A stretch of 64,000 bases of DNA from Halioxenophilus sp. WMMB6 (GTDB taxonomy: Bacteria > Pseudomonadota > Gammaproteobacteria > Pseudomonadales > Cellvibrionaceae), in contig NZ_JAWMQR010000007.1 in assembly GCF_033283405.1 (NCBI RefSeq), positions 148,807 through 212,806 on the forward strand, in the 5' to 3' direction. This document shows, piece after piece, positions 1,698 through 64,000 of the stretch. Below the pieces are notes generated by a model. The model was not told where the DNA came from. It ran no database searches and worked only from the letters and a program-made list of their open reading frames with translations. The stretch's first letter is position 1. Each line of letters starts with the position of its first letter. The translations under genes were made by a program, and so were the position numbers.

Positions 1698-3104
1698 ATG
1701 GCCGCCTACCACTTTACCCTGGGCGATAAACGCTACCGCTTTCACAGCCTGGCCGAGCTGATGGCCAAGGCGACACCACTGCGCTCCGGTGATCAACTGG
1801 CCGGGGTCGCCGCCGCCACCGCCGAGGAGCGGGTGGTGGCGCAGATGGCACTGGCGGAACTGCCGCTGGCCACCTTCCTTAACGACCTGCTGATCCCCTA
1901 CGAGCAGGATGAAGTCACCCGCCTGATCATCGACGAACACAACGCCTCCGCCTTTGCCGCCATCGCCCATCTGACGGTGGGGGACTTTCGCAACTGGCTG
2001 TTGAGTGAGGCGGCCAGCAGCGAGGTGCTGGCGGCAGTGGCGCCGGGTATTACCCCCGAGATGGCGGCGGCGGTGAGCAAGCTGATGCGCAATCAGGATC
2101 TGATTCTGGTGGCGAAAAAGTGCCGGGTAGTGACCGCCTTCCGCTCCACCATCGGCCTGCCCGGGCGCTTCGCCACCCGCCTGCAACCCAATCACCCCAC
2201 CGACGACAGCACCGGCATTGCCGCCTCCATTCTGGATGGCCTGCTCTATGGCAACGGCGACGCGGTGATCGGCATCAACCCGGCCACCGACAATGTGCGC
2301 CAGTGCAAGCAGCTGCTGCAGATGCTGAACGACGTCATCGAAACCTACGCCATTCCCACTCAATCCTGTGTGCTCACGCACGTTACCAACACCCTGGAGG
2401 CGATGGCGCAGGGGGCGCCGGTGGACCTGGTGTTTCAGTCCATAGGCGGCACCGAGGCCACCAACCGCAGCTTTGGTATCGACCTGGCGCTGCTGGCCGA
2501 GGCTGAGGCTGCCGCCCTGGCGCTTAAGCGCGGGACCGTCGGGCAGAATGTGATGTATTTTGAGACTGGCCAGGGCAGTGCCCTCTCGGCCAATGGCCAC
2601 CACGGCCTCGACCAACAAACCTGCGAGGCCCGCGCCTACGCGGTGGCGCGCAAGTTCAAGCCGCTGCTGGTTAATACCGTGGTTGGTTTTATCGGGCCGG
2701 AGTACCTGTTCGATGGCAAGCAGATCACCCGCGCCGGGCTCGAGGATCACTTCTGCGGCAAGTTGCTGGGGCTGCCGATGGGGGTGGATGTCTGCTACAC
2801 CAACCACGCCCAGGCCGACCAGAACGATATGGATAACCTGCTGACGCTGCTGGCGGTGGCGGGCTGCAATTTCATTATGGGTATCCCCGGCTCCGACGAC
2901 ATTATGCTCAACTACCAGACCACCTCCTTCCACGATGCCCTCTACGTACGCGAGGTGCTGGGCCTGCAACCGGCGCCGGAATTCGCCGAATGGCTGGAGC
3001 GCCAGGGTATCTTTGCCGAGGGCGGCACCCACCTGGCCAAGGGGCTGCCCGGCGCTTTTGCCCAGGCGCTCAACCATATTCCAAAACCCGACGAGGCCCA
3101 CTAA
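1698..3104 (+). CDS. eutB: ethanolamine ammonia-lyase large (heavy) subunit
   Basis: 468 aa. Full-length similarity pattern to EutB ([15 protein letters not shown]..., conserved TIM-barrel regions), from established knowledge of EutB. Stop overlaps the eutC start (TAATG). Confidence 0.92.
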
Positions 3105-4673: not shown

Positions 4674-5995
4674 TGTCCCACGAAATGATCGCGCTGATGA
4701 TGTTTTCGTTGATGATGCTGTTGATGGTCACCGGCCAGCGGGTGTTTGCCGCCATTGGCGCCGTGGCCGCCTTCTCCGCCCTGGCATTGTGGGGCACCGG
4801 CGGCTCGGATATCCCCTTCTCGGCGGCGATGAAGCTGATGAGCTGGTACCCGCTACTGACGCTGCCCATGTTTATCTTTATGGGCTATGTACTGTCGGAG
4901 TCGCGCATTGCCGATGACCTCTACCAGATGTTCCATGTCTGGATGGGGCCGGTGCCGGGCGGCCTGGCCATCGGTACTATCGCCTTGATGGTACTGGTCT
5001 CGGCCATGAATGGCCTGTCGGTGGCGGGCATGGCCATTGGCGCCACCATTGCCCTGCCGGAGCTGTTGCGCCGGGGTTACGACAAGAAAATGGTGACCGG
5101 TGTGGTGCAGGCCGGCTCCTCACTGGGAATTCTGGTACCGCCCTCGGTGGTGCTCGTGCTCTACGCCATGATTGCCCGCCAGCCGGTGGGCCAGCTGTGG
5201 CTGGCGGGGGTGATGCCCGGGCTGGTGATGGCGGCCCTGTTTATCGTCTACATCGCCATTCGCTGCCGGCTGCAGCCGAGCCTGGGGCCGGTGCTGCCCA
5301 AGGCCGAGCGCCAGGTGAGCCTGGCGGAGAAACTGCGCCTGCTGCGTGCCGGCCTGCTGCCCATCGTTATTTTTGCGGTGATGATGGTGCCTTTTGTCAA
5401 CGGCTGGACCAGCCTGGTGGAGAGCTCCGCCCTGGGTGCCATCGCCGCGCTGATTGCCGCTTTTCTTAAACGCCGCCTCACCCTGCCGGTGTTCGAAAAC
5501 TCGGTGCGCCAGACCCTGGGCATCTCCTGCATGTTTATGTGGATCATTCTGGCGGCGCTGGGTTTTGGAGCGGTGTTTGATGGCTTGGGGGCGGTGAAGG
5601 CGATCGATCACCTCTTTACCGATCAACTCGGACTCAACCCGTGGATGATCCTGATTCTGATGCAGCTCTCGTTTCTGATTATGGGCACCTTCCTGGACGA
5701 CACCGCCATGCTGGTGATCGTCGCTCCGCTCTACGTGCCGTTGGTGCAGCACCTGGGTTTCGACCTGATCTGGTATGGCGTGCTCTACACCATCACCACC
5801 CAGGTGGCCTACATGACGCCACCGTTTGGCTACAACCTGTTTTTAATGAGGGCCATGGCGCCGCCGGAGATCAGCCTGCGCGACATCTATGGCTCTATCT
5901 GGCCGTTTGTATCGGTGATGATCCTGGCTCTGGTGTTGGTGATGCTCTTCCCGCAAATGGCGCTCTGGTTACCGGAGAGTGTCTACGGCAAATAA
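4673..5995 (+). CDS. dctM: TRAP transporter large permease (DctM family)
   Basis: About 440 aa polytopic membrane protein. ATG at 4673 overlaps the dctQ stop (TGATG) with GAGGAG upstream. DctM-like sequence throughout. Confidence 0.88.
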   Translation: MSHEMIALMMFSLMMLLMVTGQRVFAAIGAVAAFSALALWGTGGSDIPFSAAMKLMSWYPLLTLPMFIFMGYVLSESRIADDLYQMFHVWMGPVPGGLAIGTIALMVLVSAMNGLSVAGMAIGATIALPELLRRGYDKKMVTGVVQAGSSLGILVPPSVVLVLYAMIARQPVGQLWLAGVMPGLVMAALFIVYIAIRCRLQPSLGPVLPKAERQVSLAEKLRLLRAGLLPIVIFAVMMVPFVNGWTSLVESSALGAIAALIAAFLKRRLTLPVFENSVRQTLGISCMFMWIILAALGFGAVFDGLGAVKAIDHLFTDQLGLNPWMILILMQLSFLIMGTFLDDTAMLVIVAPLYVPLVQHLGFDLIWYGVLYTITTQVAYMTPPFGYNLFLMRAMAPPEISLRDIYGSIWPFVSVMILALVLVMLFPQMALWLPESVYGK

Positions 5996-30562: not shown

Positions 30563-30859
30563 TTTTATAATCGTTATTTTTCGAACATCACAGCATAACC
30601 AGAATAATTTAAAGCTACCACCCGAGGCAAAACAAAATATCGCTATTGTGGAAAACTATAGCAGCGAATTTGACGCCACTAATGCAATTCCTCAAGTAAA
30701 GTTGACCGGCTGGCGGAAAATTTTTGAATGCGTATTAAGTAATGAACATTCAAGGAGTGCGCACTGATGCCATTTTTATGGTGGCCTTAATCCGTTAATT
30801 GCCAGCCTGTAGTTGGATAAAAAGTGCTTAACTGTTGAATTGATTGCCGGTGGCCTGCG

Positions 30860-30901
30860 CTGATGGCTGATGGCTGATGGCTGATGGCTGATGGCTGATG
30901 G
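30860..30901. repeat. heptanucleotide microsatellite (CTGATGG)x6
   Basis: Six perfect tandem copies seen directly. Confidence 0.95.
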
Positions 30902-32940: not shown

Positions 32941-32942
32941 GG

Positions 32943-33016
32943 AGTTTTTGGCGGGATTCGAACCCGCTACCGATAGATTATTAATCTACTGCTCTACCCG
33001 AATGAGCTACAAAAAC
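32943..33016 (-). tRNA. non-canonical tRNA-like gene: full 74-nt cloverleaf, anticodon loop TTAATAA (anticodon AAT), acceptor stem GUUUUUG/CAAAAAC, no encoded CCA
   Basis: Manual fold: 7-bp acceptor, D-arm GCTC-ATTCGGGTA-GAGC, anticodon stem GTAGA/TCTAT (part of the perfect palindrome TAGATTAATAATCTA), variable loop CGGTA, T-arm GCGGG-TTCGAAT-CCCGC. Confidence 0.45.
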
Positions 33017-33145
33017 GGTGGTTTATGTCCACCCGGCAATTGGTACACACAACGGTAGTACCGCCTGCGCCGGACTGGCCTTTGGAACCAGTGCCGCTAA
33101 TTACCGGGCGAGAGATAAACTCTGTGTGGCCAATGCCTAAAAAAA

Positions 33146-33703
33146 TTAGGCTTGAGGCCAAATCCGGTTTCCGGAAAATTGCTTCTCCAGATACTCCATT
33201 TGATCCGCCAGTACTTGGTGTTGGGCCAAAAACAGCCCTTCACTCCGGTTGGGGCAGAAAGGCACCGCCAGTAACACCATGCCCGCCTGTTCCGGTGTAC
33301 GGTCGGCTTTAAAGTGGTTGCAGCGCTTACAGGCGGCCACCACATTTTGCCAACGGTTTTGGCCGCCCTGTGCGCGCGGCACAATGTGGTCGCAGGTGAG
33401 CTCACGGGCTAAAAAGCGCTGACCACAATACATACAACGGTAGTTATCCCGGCGAAACAGCAGCCGGTTGCACAAAGGTGGCGCCGGCTGTGCTTGCTGC
33501 TCCCGGCCGCGAGTGGCGATAATGGCGCGCAGAGCAATGTGGGAGCGCTGGCCGCTTGCCCGATTTACACCGCCGGTCAGGTTGAAAATTAACTCGCCCA
33601 GCTCCCACTGCACCTGATTTTTTACATAGAGCAGCGCTGCCTCCGAGCGGGATAGCCAGGCGGTGGCGGTGCCGGTGCTATCCAGGCGCAAGATGCTAAC
33701 CAT
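33146..33703 (-). CDS. HNH endonuclease family protein
   Basis: AGGAGA RBS. HNH motif CMYCGQRF...CDHIVPRAQGGQNRWQNVVAACKRCNHFKADR seen directly. Confidence 0.8.
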   Translation of the reverse strand: MVSILRLDSTGTATAWLSRSEAALLYVKNQVQWELGELIFNLTGGVNRASGQRSHIALRAIIATRGREQQAQPAPPLCNRLLFRRDNYRCMYCGQRFLARELTCDHIVPRAQGGQNRWQNVVAACKRCNHFKADRTPEQAGMVLLAVPFCPNRSEGLFLAQHQVLADQMEYLEKQFSGNRIWPQA

Positions 33704-33721
33704 GGTCTTCTCCTGGTATGG

Positions 33722-34012
33722 TTACCGATAAAAATTTGCGCCATCGATGGATCGATAGCCGCAACTGTTTAAAAGCGTGCCGAGCTGTGCCCGCCGGCTG
33801 CGATCAGATTCGGTCAGCACCACTCTGTTCGGTAGCCGTGATCGGCTTTGCGCCCAGCGTAAAACCACACAGCTGTTGTCCCGTCCGTGTAGTGAAAAGT
33901 CGACCGCCAACACCGAGATGACCAATTCGTTCAGCGCCTTTTTAGCGCTGCGGCTGTCTCTGCAGTAGAGGTCTGCACTGAACACAGCGCGTTTACCCAA
34001 AGCGACTCGCAT
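33722..34012 (-). CDS. hypothetical protein (96 aa), co-oriented 18 nt upstream of HNH gene
   Basis: Very strong SD (AAGGAGGAG) before ATG 34012. Lies directly downstream of the tRNA-Lys gene. No recognisable domain. Confidence 0.45.
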   Translation of the reverse strand: MRVALGKRAVFSADLYCRDSRSAKKALNELVISVLAVDFSLHGRDNSCVVLRWAQSRSRLPNRVVLTESDRSRRAQLGTLLNSCGYRSIDGANFYR

Positions 34013-34051
34013 TGCTTCTCCTCCTTGATGTAAAAATTGCCAATAGTTAAT

Positions 34052-34126
34052 TGGTTGGAGGTATGGGAGTCGAACCCATCTGTGCCGGAGTAAAAGTCCG
34101 GTGCTCTGCCGCTAAGCCAACCCCCA
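34052..34126 (-). tRNA. tRNA-Lys (anticodon UUU), CCA encoded
   Basis: Manual cloverleaf: acceptor TGGGGGT/ACCTCCA, anticodon arm CCGGA-CTTTTAC-TCCGG, T-arm ATGGG-TTCGACT-CCCAT, discriminator A then CCA. Confidence 0.8.
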
Positions 34127-34168
34127 ATAAAAATCCTTGGTCAATTTGTCTGCTTTACTGCCGAATAA

Positions 34169-34243
34169 TGGCAGCAGCCTCAGGGCTCGAACCTGAAATA
34201 CGTGAGTCAAAGTCACGTGTGTTACCCATTACACCAGGCTGCT
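34169..34243 (-). tRNA. tRNA-Gln (anticodon UUG), CCA encoded
   Basis: Manual cloverleaf: acceptor AGCAGCC/GGCTGCT, D-arm GTGT-AATGGGTA-ACAC, anticodon arm CGTGA-CTTTGAC-TCACG, T-arm TCAGG-TTCGAGC-CCTGA, discriminator G then CCA. Confidence 0.8.
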
Positions 34244-34279
34244 GGAGTACTAAATTTAATGGTGATCAATATCATTGGC

Positions 34280-34366
34280 TGGCAGCGGTGAGATTCGAAC
34301 TGACACGGCGCCGCAAGTCACCGCACGGATTAGTAATCCGCTGCCGTACCGTTCAGCCATGCTGCC
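34280..34366 (-). tRNA. type II (long variable arm) tRNA-like gene with anticodon loop TTACTAA (anticodon ACT; Ser-like), mismatches in acceptor (A7:C66) and T-stem (C:C); possible pseudo-tRNA
   Basis: Manual fold: GGCAGCA-TG-GCTG-AACGGTA-CGGC-A-GCGGA-TTACTAA-TCCGT, about 20-nt variable arm, GTCAG-TTCGAAT-CTCAC, CGCTGCC-A. No CCA. Confidence 0.4.
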
Positions 34367-34410
34367 AATAATCTTCCCGTTTGAGTTTTCTGGCTCGCTT
34401 GGCCATAAAA

Positions 34411-34639: not shown

Positions 34640-34678
34640 TGTTTTCTGTTTTCTGTTTTCTGTTTTCTGTTTTCTGTC
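34640..34678. repeat. heptanucleotide microsatellite (TGTTTTC)x5.5
   Basis: Seen directly. Followed by hairpin ctcgct-tgcgatagc-agcgag plus T5 (plus-strand terminator-like). Confidence 0.95.
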
Positions 34679-60652: not shown

Positions 60653-62888
<2,236 letters not shown>

Positions 62889-62909
62889 ACTATTTTCCTC
62901 TGTTTATGA

Positions 62910-63450
62910 ATTTTCCGGGGCTCCTGCCCCGGAAAATTGTCGCCACGCACAAGCGGACGCAATTGTAAAAATTGCTGGTTGTGCGTGACTCGCATTGGCG
63001 CTGCCAATGGTGGTGCATCCCTGCACCACACGCACAACTAAACTCAGTGCCCAGGGCTCCTGCCCCGGAAAATTGTCGCCACGCACAAGCGGGTGCAATT
63101 GTAAAAATTGCTGGTTGTGTGTGACTCGCATTGGCGCTGCCAATGGTGGTGCATCCCTGCACCACACGCACAACTAAACTCAGTACCCAGGGCTTCTGCC
63201 CCGGAAAATTGTCGCCCCGCACAAGCGGGCGCAATTGTAAAAATTGCTGGTTGTGCGTGACTCGCATTGGCGCTGCCAATGGTGGTGCATCCCTGCACCA
63301 CACGCACAACTAAACTCAGTACGCAGGGCTCCTGTCCCGGAAAATTGTTGCCACGCACAAGCGGGCGCAATTGTAAAAATTGCTGGTTGTGCGTGACTCG
63401 CATTGGCGCTGCCAGTGGTAGTGCATCCGTGTAGCGCGCATTTAATCCGG
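62910..63450. repeat. tandem array of four about 136-bp repeat units (period 136, copies differ by a few SNPs), each with 3 or more internal stem-loops
   Basis: Unit landmarks ctcctgcccc at 62921, 63057, 63193, 63329. Internal hairpins ccgggg-ctcctg-ccccgg, gcaatt-gtaaaa-aattgc and gtgca-tccc-tgcac seen directly. Confidence 0.9.
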
Positions 63451-63501
63451 ATAGCTGATTAAAAATACCGAATAAAAATGTCGGTGATTAAATTTGATTA
63501 A

Positions 63502-64000
63502 TTACCGTCCCTGCCACACTGGCGCCCGCTTTTCGGCGAACGCCTTTGCCCCTTCCAGGGCATCGGCGGAATCAAAAATGGGCTCTGCCAAGAGCGCCTG
63601 TTTGGCGAACATCTCCTCGGTGCTCCAGTCTTGCGACTCGTTCATAATGCGCTTGCTGGTGGCGACCGCCATTGGCCCATTGGCGGCAATCACGGCGGCC
63701 AATTCAAGGGCGGCGTTTAAGGCCTCGCCGGGGGCTACCAGGCGGTTGATAAAACCGAGCTCGTAGGCGCGTTCGGCCGAGATAAGATCACCGGTGAGTG
63801 CCATCTCCATGGCGATGCGCCGTGGGATCTGGCGAGGGAAGCGCATCAGGCCACCACCGGCGGCAACCAGGCCACGTTTGGTTTCAGGAATACCAAAGCG
63901 GGCATTATTGGCCGAGACAATCAGGTCGCAGGCGGCGGCGATTTCACAGCCGCCGGCCAGGGCAAAACTTTCAATGGCCGCGATAATCGGTTTTTGGGGT
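63502..64000 (-). CDS. enoyl-CoA hydratase (crotonase) family protein, 5' end outside window
   Basis: C-terminal crotonase region (...GGGLMRFPRQIPRRIAMEMALTGDLISAERAYELGFINRLV...). Reading frame continues to the window edge. Confidence 0.75.
   Translation of the reverse strand, partial: PQKPIIAAIESFALAGGCEIAAACDLIVSANNARFGIPETKRGLVAAGGGLMRFPRQIPRRIAMEMALTGDLISAERAYELGFINRLVAPGEALNAALELAAVIAANGPMAVATSKRIMNESQDWSTEEMFAKQALLAEPIFDSADALEGAKAFAEKRAPVWQGR

Follow-up and report, generated by a model that had tools for sequence, protein, structure and literature searches.

The DNA analysed here, a 64-kb stretch of the marine bacterium Halioxenophilus sp. WMMB6 that we call the window and to which all unassigned coordinates refer, ends within a gene (ech) for an enoyl-CoA hydratase of the crotonase family, of which it includes the C-terminal part. 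A spacer of 613 nt separates ech from a thiolase gene; both genes are encoded on the minus strand, which is therefore their mRNA-sense strand and is termed the sense strand below. A tandem array of a strongly folded 136-bp unit takes up 517 nt of this spacer. The rest consists of 70 nt following ech and 26 nt bearing the Shine-Dalgarno (SD) sequence of the thiolase gene (GAGGAA, 62900-62895, with the ATG at 62888-62886). The gene calls agree with an earlier note on this DNA, which had placed the array between the ech stop and the thiolase start on the minus strand. A Halioxenophilus sp. WMMB6 protein matches the thiolase at 100% identity. The features of the locus and of the related elements found elsewhere are collected in table 1.

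The array was delimited by three approaches. Tandem Repeats Finder called 62918-63428 as 3.8 copies of period 136 (96% matches, zero indels, score 945), the sole long-period array in the window. A repeat search returned three in-register 245-nt copies spanning 62915 to 63431, and BLAST of the array against itself, shifted, gave E = 4e-177. Copies 1-3 share 96.3-97.1% identity in pairwise comparisons. The partial fourth copy, on the ech side, is 93.4-94.3% identical to the others, and its final ~25 nt grade into unique sequence, so that this copy is both truncated and degenerate; the boundary on the thiolase side is sharp. The earlier note had described four tandem 136-bp repeats with a few single-nucleotide polymorphisms (SNPs) per copy. 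Period, repetition, and SNPs hold, and the number of copies becomes 3.8. Head-to-tail repeats of high identity lying in a spacer correspond to the descriptive definition of an intergenic variable-number tandem repeat (VNTR) or minisatellite. As the copies are 93-97% identical, the amplification is recent. The array is no CRISPR, as the note had already judged from its length and uniformity: the entire 136-bp period is repeated, with zero unique spacers.

Each unit contains four perfect palindromes of 17-30 nt, named H1, H3, H5, and M4, together with a motif, CACGCACAA, that occurs three times and permits alternative pairings. On the sense strand, M4 comes first, followed by H5, by a composite helix around H3, and finally by H1. 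In the unit, H1 reads CCAGGGC-TCCT-GCCCCGG, and only at 62909-62938 does unique flanking sequence lengthen the stem to a perfect 13 bp, 8 nt upstream of the thiolase SD. In the internal copies of H1 (63051-63068 and 63187-63204), the stem measures 7 bp, and one of its pairs is G.U on the sense strand. M4, which on the plus strand reads GTGGTGCA-TCCC-TGCACCAC and recurs at +136 intervals, forms with its flanks a 29-nt module, AATGGTGGTGCATCCCTGCACCACACGCA. The inverse motif TTGTGCGTG can pair with either neighboring CACGCACAA, giving mutually exclusive helices around H3 or around H5 and M4 in both the sense and the antisense folds. An inverted-repeat search also detected in the array a 10-bp long-range pair, GTTGTGCGTG/CACGCACAAC. 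All the stem-loops named in the earlier note (ccgggg/ccccgg, gcaatt/aattgc, and gtgca/tgcac) were recovered, and CATTGGC/GCCAATG and GTTGTGCGTG/CACGCACAAC can be added to them.

Table 1. Coordinates of the array, its palindromes, the flanking genes, and the related metagenomic elements (positions in the window unless a contig is named).
Feature	Position	Strand	Description
Tandem array	62915-63431	.	Tandem Repeats Finder, repeat search, self-BLAST; pairwise identity 93-97%
Array copy 1	62918-63053		
Array copy 2	63054-63189		
Array copy 3	63190-63325		
Array copy 4, partial	63326-63431		106 nt
H1, perfect form	62909-62938	-	AAUUUUCCGGGGC-AGGA-GCCCCGGAAAAUU on sense RNA; 13-bp stem, 100% complementary
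M4	63010-63029	-	GUGGUGCA-GGGA-UGCACCAC on sense RNA, apex CAGGGAUG; further copies 63146-63165, 63282-63301; degenerate copy 63418-63435, apex CACGGAUG
H5	62993-63009	.	CATTGGC-GCT-GCCAATG, perfect 7-3-7 palindrome; further copies 63129-63145, 63265-63281, and, with one A>G change, 63401-63417
H3	62959-62975	-	GCAATTG-TAA-AAATTGC; further copies 63095-63111, 63231-63247, 63367-63383
Motif CACGCACAA	62944-62952, 63029-63037	.	Twice direct in every unit
Inverse motif TTGTGCGTG	62979-62987	.	Once in every unit
Thiolase coding sequence	61653-62888	-	Acetyl-CoA C-acetyltransferase; NF004682, 728 bits
ech, C-terminal part	63502-64000	-	TAA 63504-63502; runs off the window
Weak terminator-like hairpin directly after ech	63461-63485	-	ACCGA-CAUUUUUAU-UCGGU then AUUUUUAAU (U-run); from sequence and fold
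Five-hairpin element	L021 1681-1832		Between ruvB and ybgC
Five-hairpin element	L023 5177-5330		Directly after an outer-membrane protein gene
Five-hairpin element, more diverged	L028 12330-12470		Upstream of prfB; same organism as L019

The predicted structure is far more stable than that of shuffled sequences. Over a 621-nt region, the folding z-score is -7.2 for the sense strand and -9.2 for the antisense strand. Copy 1 with the thiolase leader folds in the sense orientation at -65.9 kcal/mol (z = -7.1), and the SD stays unpaired. Fold z-scores of -3 to -7 accompany short palindromes that can form stable stem-loops, as is required of repetitive extragenic palindromes (REPs), which are imperfect and 20-40 nt long. 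H1 was considered as a terminator and rejected, since on both strands a U-tract precedes the stem and an A-tract follows it. An array of small RNA genes was likewise rejected: no unit carries a terminator, and promoter-like sites are no commoner than in shuffled sequences.

Searches for further copies were conducted at several scales. Neither the unit nor any of its hairpins has a second copy elsewhere in the window (63 kb), even when up to three mismatches are allowed for M4. A single 21-mer probe taken from H3 gave no full-length relative among 185k species genomes (WMMB6 not included). Its matches, in Pelagibacter, Rickettsiales, and Dorea, are due to chance, the similarity ending at 21-34 nt; being A+T-rich, this 21-mer is a poor probe that says little about divergent copies. 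Among the viral contigs of IMG/VR, a 20-mer had no match and an 18-mer one chance match in a high-GC coding region. Plasmid collections contained no match for the unit. In Rfam, the array has three weak matches only at E <= 10, all far under the gathering scores, and the whole window yields four tRNAs only. The unit therefore matches no described RNA family, in line with the earlier note. That note had also suggested a novel intergenic repeat family; with no other copy in the 63 kb and no full-length relative in the collections searched, that suggestion is not supported in this form.

The M4 hairpin, by contrast, has relatives. A 22-mer from M4 was found in the JGI metagenomes in three independent contexts on five contigs, with identity reaching 28-29 nt, for a chance expectation of ~0.06, a rough estimate assuming a collection of ~5e11 bases; searched with one 22-mer, these metagenomes contained no full-length relative of the unit. 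The shared sequence is AATGG[T/C]GGTGCATCCCTGCACCACACGC[A/C]. The 29-nt module is identical in L021 and L022 and conserved at 28 of its 29 positions in L023 and in L019 and L020. In L021 and L023, five perfect hairpins abut one another, the M4 hairpin being the second, and form an element of ~150 nt (fold z = -11.6) beginning 0-18 nt from a stop codon. A more diverged element of the same layout is present in L028, where the second hairpin is CCGAUACA-UGGA-UGUAUCGG. Among the elements of L021, L023, and L028, 13 of 57 pairs have changed on both sides with pairing retained. At the L028 locus, three versions differ by one base across the spacer and add no covariation. Over the array, the window, and the metagenome loci, Rfam detected nothing beyond tRNAs and, in L023, a group II intron, and plasmid and phage collections had no match for the L021 element, which was the sole query for phages.

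A covariance model built from the L021, L023, and L028 elements only, with WMMB6 excluded, matches WMMB6 copy 1 with 49.9 bits (E about 3e-14). The match (63053-62907) is full-length, with all five hairpin positions collinear, and is found on the minus strand only. In the alignment, M4 falls on M4 and H5 on the third hairpin; the fourth is matched by the CACGCACAA helix, in which H3 is inserted, and the terminal one by H1; the first hairpin is weak. By this match, whose score is dominated by the identical M4, the WMMB6 unit belongs to the five-hairpin layout, in which the second hairpin has a CA-NGGA-UG apex and the terminal one is A/U-clamped with a GGA loop. The unit and the five-hairpin elements share the M4 module (in L021 and L023), a collinear order, a similar length of 134-150 nt, the sense orientation, and a UGCGUG linker before two GGA-loop hairpins. 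Where the neighboring genes make orientation informative (WMMB6, L021, and L023), the GGA loops lie on the strand that is sense for the gene or genes alongside, only the upstream gene being known for L023. The five-hairpin elements are single copies ending in a terminator-like hairpin with an A-tract and a U-tract, whereas the WMMB6 unit is in tandem; in its terminal hairpin, a U-tract precedes and an A-tract follows the stem, so that it is not a terminator on either strand. The middle hairpins of the unit have no sequence relation to those of the five-hairpin elements. The earlier note had stated that a unit found once, with no homologs elsewhere and no structural covariation, would amount only to a local duplication. 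The sharing of the M4 module and the compensatory changes in the relatives depart from that situation, in part.

Several other repeats were observed on the metagenomic contigs. L019 carries, 2.3 kb apart, two copies in opposite orientation of a mosaic repeat (2860-3000, minus strand, and 5225-5330, plus strand, equivalent to L028 9770-9880 and 12100-12240) in which GGTTTGCAAACC and CGGAAAATGGCG occur together with the hairpin AATTGTCA-(T)GG(G)A-TGACAATT. M4, present in one of the L019 mosaic copies and missing from the other, behaves as an exchangeable module. In L028 (2217-2348), a hairpin pair upstream of a dsbC-like gene, CCACCGGA-CAAG-TCCGGTGG and CGAGAGGGGC-GGAG-GCCCCTCTCG, is duplicated in tandem over 78 bp, a second case of tandemly duplicated spacer hairpin modules. 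The group II intron of L023 (10-1086) contains a reverse-transcriptase open reading frame (ORF), and its Rfam match, Intron_gpII, covers 1014-1086.

From these data, we consider it highly probable that the WMMB6 locus is a real array of VNTR type, formed by local amplification, similar in a broad sense to REPs and to bacterial interspersed mosaic elements (BIMEs), and a diverged relative of the five-hairpin elements, an undescribed, sparse family situated beside gene ends in other marine Gammaproteobacteria. We infer amplification from a single element because of the 93-97% identity, the sharp junction on the thiolase side, and the degenerate copy on the ech side. Unequal recombination or replication slippage would have brought one element, lying in an already long ech-thiolase spacer, to 3.8 copies. 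If the array acts at all, it probably does so as a structured RNA spacer. It would act on the RNA of the minus strand, where ~15 stable hairpins (four per full unit and three in the partial copy) would form an untranslated structure. Intercistronic clusters of REPs and BIMEs affect mRNA stability and the differential expression of operon genes, with the his and mal operons as examples (review PMC3184786, citing Higgins 1982 and Stern 1988). Similarly, the array may block 3'->5' exonucleases, stabilizing the upstream ech message, and may uncouple the expression of ech from that of the thiolase and NMO genes. The very stable AGGA-loop hairpin, which precedes the thiolase ribosome-binding site by 8 nt, may in addition modulate translation initiation. 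Such a barrier or decoupling effect is a tentative proposal. VNTR-type amplification of a multi-hairpin element that acts as a structured RNA spacer, taken as a whole, falls somewhat short of an even chance.

A number of observations weigh against this interpretation. Much of the covariance-model score is due to the identical M4, and palindromic elements obtain 43-61 bits on their own wrong strand; for these two reasons, full-length homology of the unit to the five-hairpin elements is only moderately supported. All stems of the family are perfect Watson-Crick palindromes, equally compatible with a role at the DNA level. The model has no match in 43 kb of two relatives of the L028 organism, which indicates a sparse family, unlike classical REPs. 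The SNPs among the WMMB6 copies disrupt pairs and loop motifs with no strand preference: a C>T change at unit position 67 retains a G.U pair on the antisense RNA only, a change in the H1 of copy 4 produces an A.C mismatch on the sense RNA, and the H1 of copy 3 is devoid of GGA (loop AGAA). This pattern looks like neutral drift since the recent amplification. Finally, ech is followed by a weak terminator-like hairpin, which the terminator scan did not call (loop of 9 nt). Co-transcription of ech and thiolase, by which the earlier note placed the array inside a beta-oxidation mRNA, is plausible; given this hairpin, the 613-nt spacer, and a spacer of 582 nt at the same place in a relative (see below), two separate transcription units are possible as well.

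The relative in question, Pseudomaricurvus sp. HS19, is the sole syntenic one found; its thiolase is 86% identical to that of WMMB6, and three other thiolase relatives are in different gene contexts. HS19 has the order ech, 582 nt, thiolase, NMO, MalT-like regulator, and TonB receptor. Its spacer (L018 5419-6000) harbors eight different hairpins, including ATTCCCGC-GAAG-GCGGGAAT, and neither the 136-nt unit nor any similarity to it was detected there. We also noted in this spacer two copies of a cattcccgcg...cgggaatccagag element, which is a palindrome of the ATTCCC...GGGAAT type, and a 10-bp hairpin, GTCGGTTGGT/ACCAACCGAC. The ech-thiolase spacer thus seems to collect palindromic inserts in both genera. 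Because the HS19 spacer is similarly long with unrelated hairpins, we conclude that this site tolerates or attracts structured insertions and that the 136-bp array postdates the split of the WMMB6 and HS19 lineages. The single locus in the window and the unrelated hairpins of HS19 likewise indicate an array that is lineage-specific and recent.

The same comparison is used by the strongest alternative, a neutral local duplication in which a hairpin-rich stretch of the native spacer would have been amplified by slippage or unequal crossing-over and tolerated. The confinement of the array to one locus of the window, the high identity among copies, which indicates a recent origin, and the SNPs that break pairs and loop motifs without strand consistency are all expected under this explanation, as is a site that accepts arbitrary insertions in HS19. 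In addition, the parts TACAATTGC ... CCGGG ... AAAAT ... AACAGAGGAA of the unit are collinear with the native HS19 thiolase leader, in the last ~80 nt before the start codons. However, this alignment is not significant (score 29 versus 23 +/- 3.3 for shuffled sequences). Neutral duplication also leaves unexplained the 29-nt module and the five-hairpin layout shared with unrelated loci, and 517 nt of extremely stable structure before a ribosome-binding site are unlikely to be neutral for expression. We regard it as unlikely, while keeping it ahead of the other alternatives.

Less probable still is that the array is a leader or a cis-acting sponge for the global carbon regulator CsrA/RsmA, with the hairpin apexes of the sense RNA as putative CsrA sites. 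Over the spacer, scanned as 616 nt, the pattern CA(N0-2)GGA(N0-1)G matches the sense strand seven times and the antisense strand not once. M4 accounts for three of the matches (CAGGGAUG), degenerate M4 for one (CACGGAUG), and H1 for three (CAGGAG). Six of the seven are at hairpin apexes; CACGGAUG belongs to the degenerate copy with a broken stem. Of 63 perfect background hairpins with stems of >= 7 bp, taken from unrelated loci and from the remainder of the window, 1 bears such an apex. The relatives keep a GGA apex while their stems change, as seen with UGGA in L028, with the terminal loops ACGGAC, AAGGAU, and AGGAAA (L021, L023, and L028, respectively), and with the L019 hairpins AAUUGUCA-GGA-UGACAAUU and AAUUGUCA-UGGGA-UGACAAUU. 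H1 and the M4 of the next unit are ~40 nt apart, within the range reported for dual-site CsrA binding. The consensus selected in vitro for CsrA, RUACARGGAUGU, has its GGA in a hairpin loop (PMC4347634), and CAGGGAUG fits its core, CARGGAUG. A CsrA dimer would bridge the AGGA loop of H1 and the GGA of the thiolase SD, ~25 nt away, and control thiolase translation; the upstream repeats would supply up to six further sites recruiting or titrating CsrA.

Like CsrB, CsrC, RsmX, RsmY, and RsmZ and the glgC, cstA, and pgaA leaders, the array displays repeated hairpins with CA(N)GGA(N)G apexes on one strand. It shares with the CsrA-controlled leaders a site near a GGA-containing SD, and with the CsrB-type RNAs an apparent construction from repeated hairpin units. 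Several GGA are in loops on the sense strand and fit the motifs of CsrA-binding RNAs, RUACARGGAUGU or A(N)GGA. The density, promoter, and terminator of a sponge are lacking: GGA occurs once per 70-90 nt (two per 136 nt), four to five times less densely than in sponges of the CsrB/RsmZ type and with a total near chance, terminators are absent from the units, the promoter-like site within them is weak, and Rfam reports no CsrB, RsmX, RsmY, or RsmZ match. Moreover, the motif was defined post hoc, which inflates the statistics, the H1 of copy 3 has lost its GGA, the thiolase leader of Pseudomaricurvus has no GGA-apex hairpin, and GGGA by itself makes a stable GNRA tetraloop. The sequences examined contain no csrA gene. 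A broader version, according to which the unit and its metagenomic relatives would be an undescribed modular RNA class of portable CsrA/RsmA-binding cassettes, with freely drifting stems and apexes held at CA(N)GGA(N)G, spreading among the 5' leaders and 3' untranslated regions of marine Gammaproteobacteria, appears to us decidedly improbable.

Alternatively, the array could be an amplified promoter or operator. The H3 sense strand contains TACAAT, a -10-like hexamer, with GTCAC(G/A) 16 nt upstream in all four units, and this combination resembles a weak sigma-70 promoter. Each unit would carry a thiolase promoter and palindromic operators for a dimeric regulator (GCAATTG-N3-AAATTGC and CATTGGC-N3-GCCAATG as candidates), and amplification would multiply the transcription starts or the binding of the regulator. 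A TetR-family gene and the MalT-like regulator flank the syntenic cluster, and in HS19, TACAATTGC is located 49 nt upstream of the thiolase ATG with a 7-3-7 palindrome, TTGCAAC-ACG-GTTGCAA, nearby. However, the promoter scan retained copy 2 only (63125-63098, 9 of 12 matches), its count does not exceed that of shuffled sequences, the -10 hexamer is enclosed in a hairpin, and the palindromes are not common to HS19, which makes this possibility very unlikely.

The least favored explanation is a classical mobile repeat, either a REP/BIME family mobilized by a REP-associated tyrosine transposase (RAYT) or a MITE (miniature transposable element with inverted repeats) that inserted and was then duplicated. 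The palindromes are of REP size and near gene ends, as are the L021 and L023 elements with respect to stop codons, and the L019/L028 organism possesses the two inverted mosaic copies described above. As in the REPs and BIMEs of Enterobacteria and Pseudomonas, for instance in hisJQMP and malEFG, G+C-containing palindromes of 17-30 nt with stable predicted hairpins are clustered in a same-strand spacer. The earlier note had found the unit larger than typical REPs and BIMEs; it does exceed a single REP, but it is made of REP-sized palindromes. REPs and BIMEs are dispersed among many intergenic regions in high copy number (hundreds per genome), with a density in Escherichia coli and Pseudomonas of about one per 4-8 kb that predicts about eight or more in 63 kb, whereas no further copy of the unit turned up in the window. 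They have a GTAG-type head and a cognate RAYT gene, which they flank, whereas the hairpins of the array have no GTAG head and tblastn detected no RAYT gene in the window. BIMEs consist of alternating inverted REPs with short conserved linkers between them; the array consists of direct repeats of four different palindromes, with a recurring CACGCA linker. Among the relatives of the array the loops are conserved and the stems vary, the opposite of REPs. L023 does encode, beside its group II intron, a RAYT-like Y1 transposase (1793-2323, region 1700-2360). It is flanked by its own inverted REPs of the GTAGGATGGGTGGAG/GTAGGATGGG type, unrelated to the five-hairpin element and its hairpins. The MITE form, proposed in the earlier note as a fossil of a small mobile element, is contradicted by the unit termini, GGGCTCC... 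and ...AGTGCCCA, which are not inverted repeats, by the lack of a direct (target) duplication at the array flanks, and by the lack of dispersed copies in the window. With no match in plasmids, viral contigs, or, for the L021 element, phages either, mobility of this kind is hardly credible.

Two other groups of repeats offer instructive comparisons. Mycobacterial interspersed repetitive units (MIRUs) and other VNTRs, such as the 100-130-bp loci used in multiple-locus VNTR analysis, are like the array head-to-tail repeats of ~50-140 bp, with few SNPs, in intra-operon spacers. VNTRs of the MIRU type presumably expand and contract by slippage or recombination. MIRUs occupy ~40 loci per genome and contain short ORFs coupled to the flanking genes; the WMMB6 unit is seen at a single locus, has a length not divisible by 3, and yields an ORF translation without relatives. 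The pneumococcal BOX elements (boxA-boxB(n)-boxC) and the enterobacterial repetitive intergenic consensus or intergenic repeat units (ERIC/IRU, ~127 bp) are of similar size, strongly folded, transcribed, and intergenic, and BOX has an internal module of variable copy number. Both are dispersed multicopy families of conserved sequence. The array has no sequence similarity to them and no Rfam match, and its repetition involves the unit as a whole rather than an internal module. MIRUs are among the references of PMC3184786.

ORFs of 139, 119, and 89 amino acids cross the array (62890-63403, minus strand), minus-strand stop triplets occurring in one frame only. None of these ORFs, the longest of which runs through three units, has a relative among 5.8 billion proteins. 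We read the array as noncoding, with no similar repeat miscalled as a gene elsewhere.

Downstream of the thiolase gene, the same strand encodes an NMO/FabK-like reductase and a MalT-like LuxR regulator. Farther downstream are genes for a TonB receptor, a kinase-like protein, an acyl-CoA dehydrogenase, an aldehyde dehydrogenase, an acyl-CoA ligase, and an alcohol dehydrogenase. Elsewhere in the window, the minus strand carries four tRNA genes at 32941-34367 (Ile-AAT, Lys-TTT, Gln-TTG, and Ser-ACT), two of them with anticodons unusual for bacteria. Interleaved with them, at 33146-33703 on the same strand, is an ORF of 185 amino acids with an HNH nuclease motif (CDHIVPRAQGG...CKRCNHFK). This cluster looks like a mobile or defense-related module. 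Tandem Repeats Finder detected two perfect 7-bp microsatellites, GCTGATG x6.1 (30859-30901) and TGTTTTC x5.4 (34640-34677), which bracket the tRNA/HNH region.

The WMMB6 array represents another case of structured palindromic repeats piled into the spacers of catabolic clusters. It is likely to be a VNTR marker for the lineage and, with ORFs of up to 139 amino acids, a warning to gene callers. It also offers a natural series of 0 to 4 copies for the effect of a structured spacer on the expression ratio of the neighboring genes. To our knowledge, regulators of CsrA are unannotated in Cellvibrionaceae and in most marine Gammaproteobacteria. Were the cassette hypothesis true, the array would place seven GGA sites, six of them apical, in a lipid-catabolism transcript, with the thiolase under CsrA control, and might be an mRNA-embedded CsrA sponge tying fatty-acid breakdown to the carbon-storage circuit. 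If the GGA-apex pattern is real, a duplicable CsrA cassette would allow post-transcriptional control to be gained or tuned through repeat expansion.

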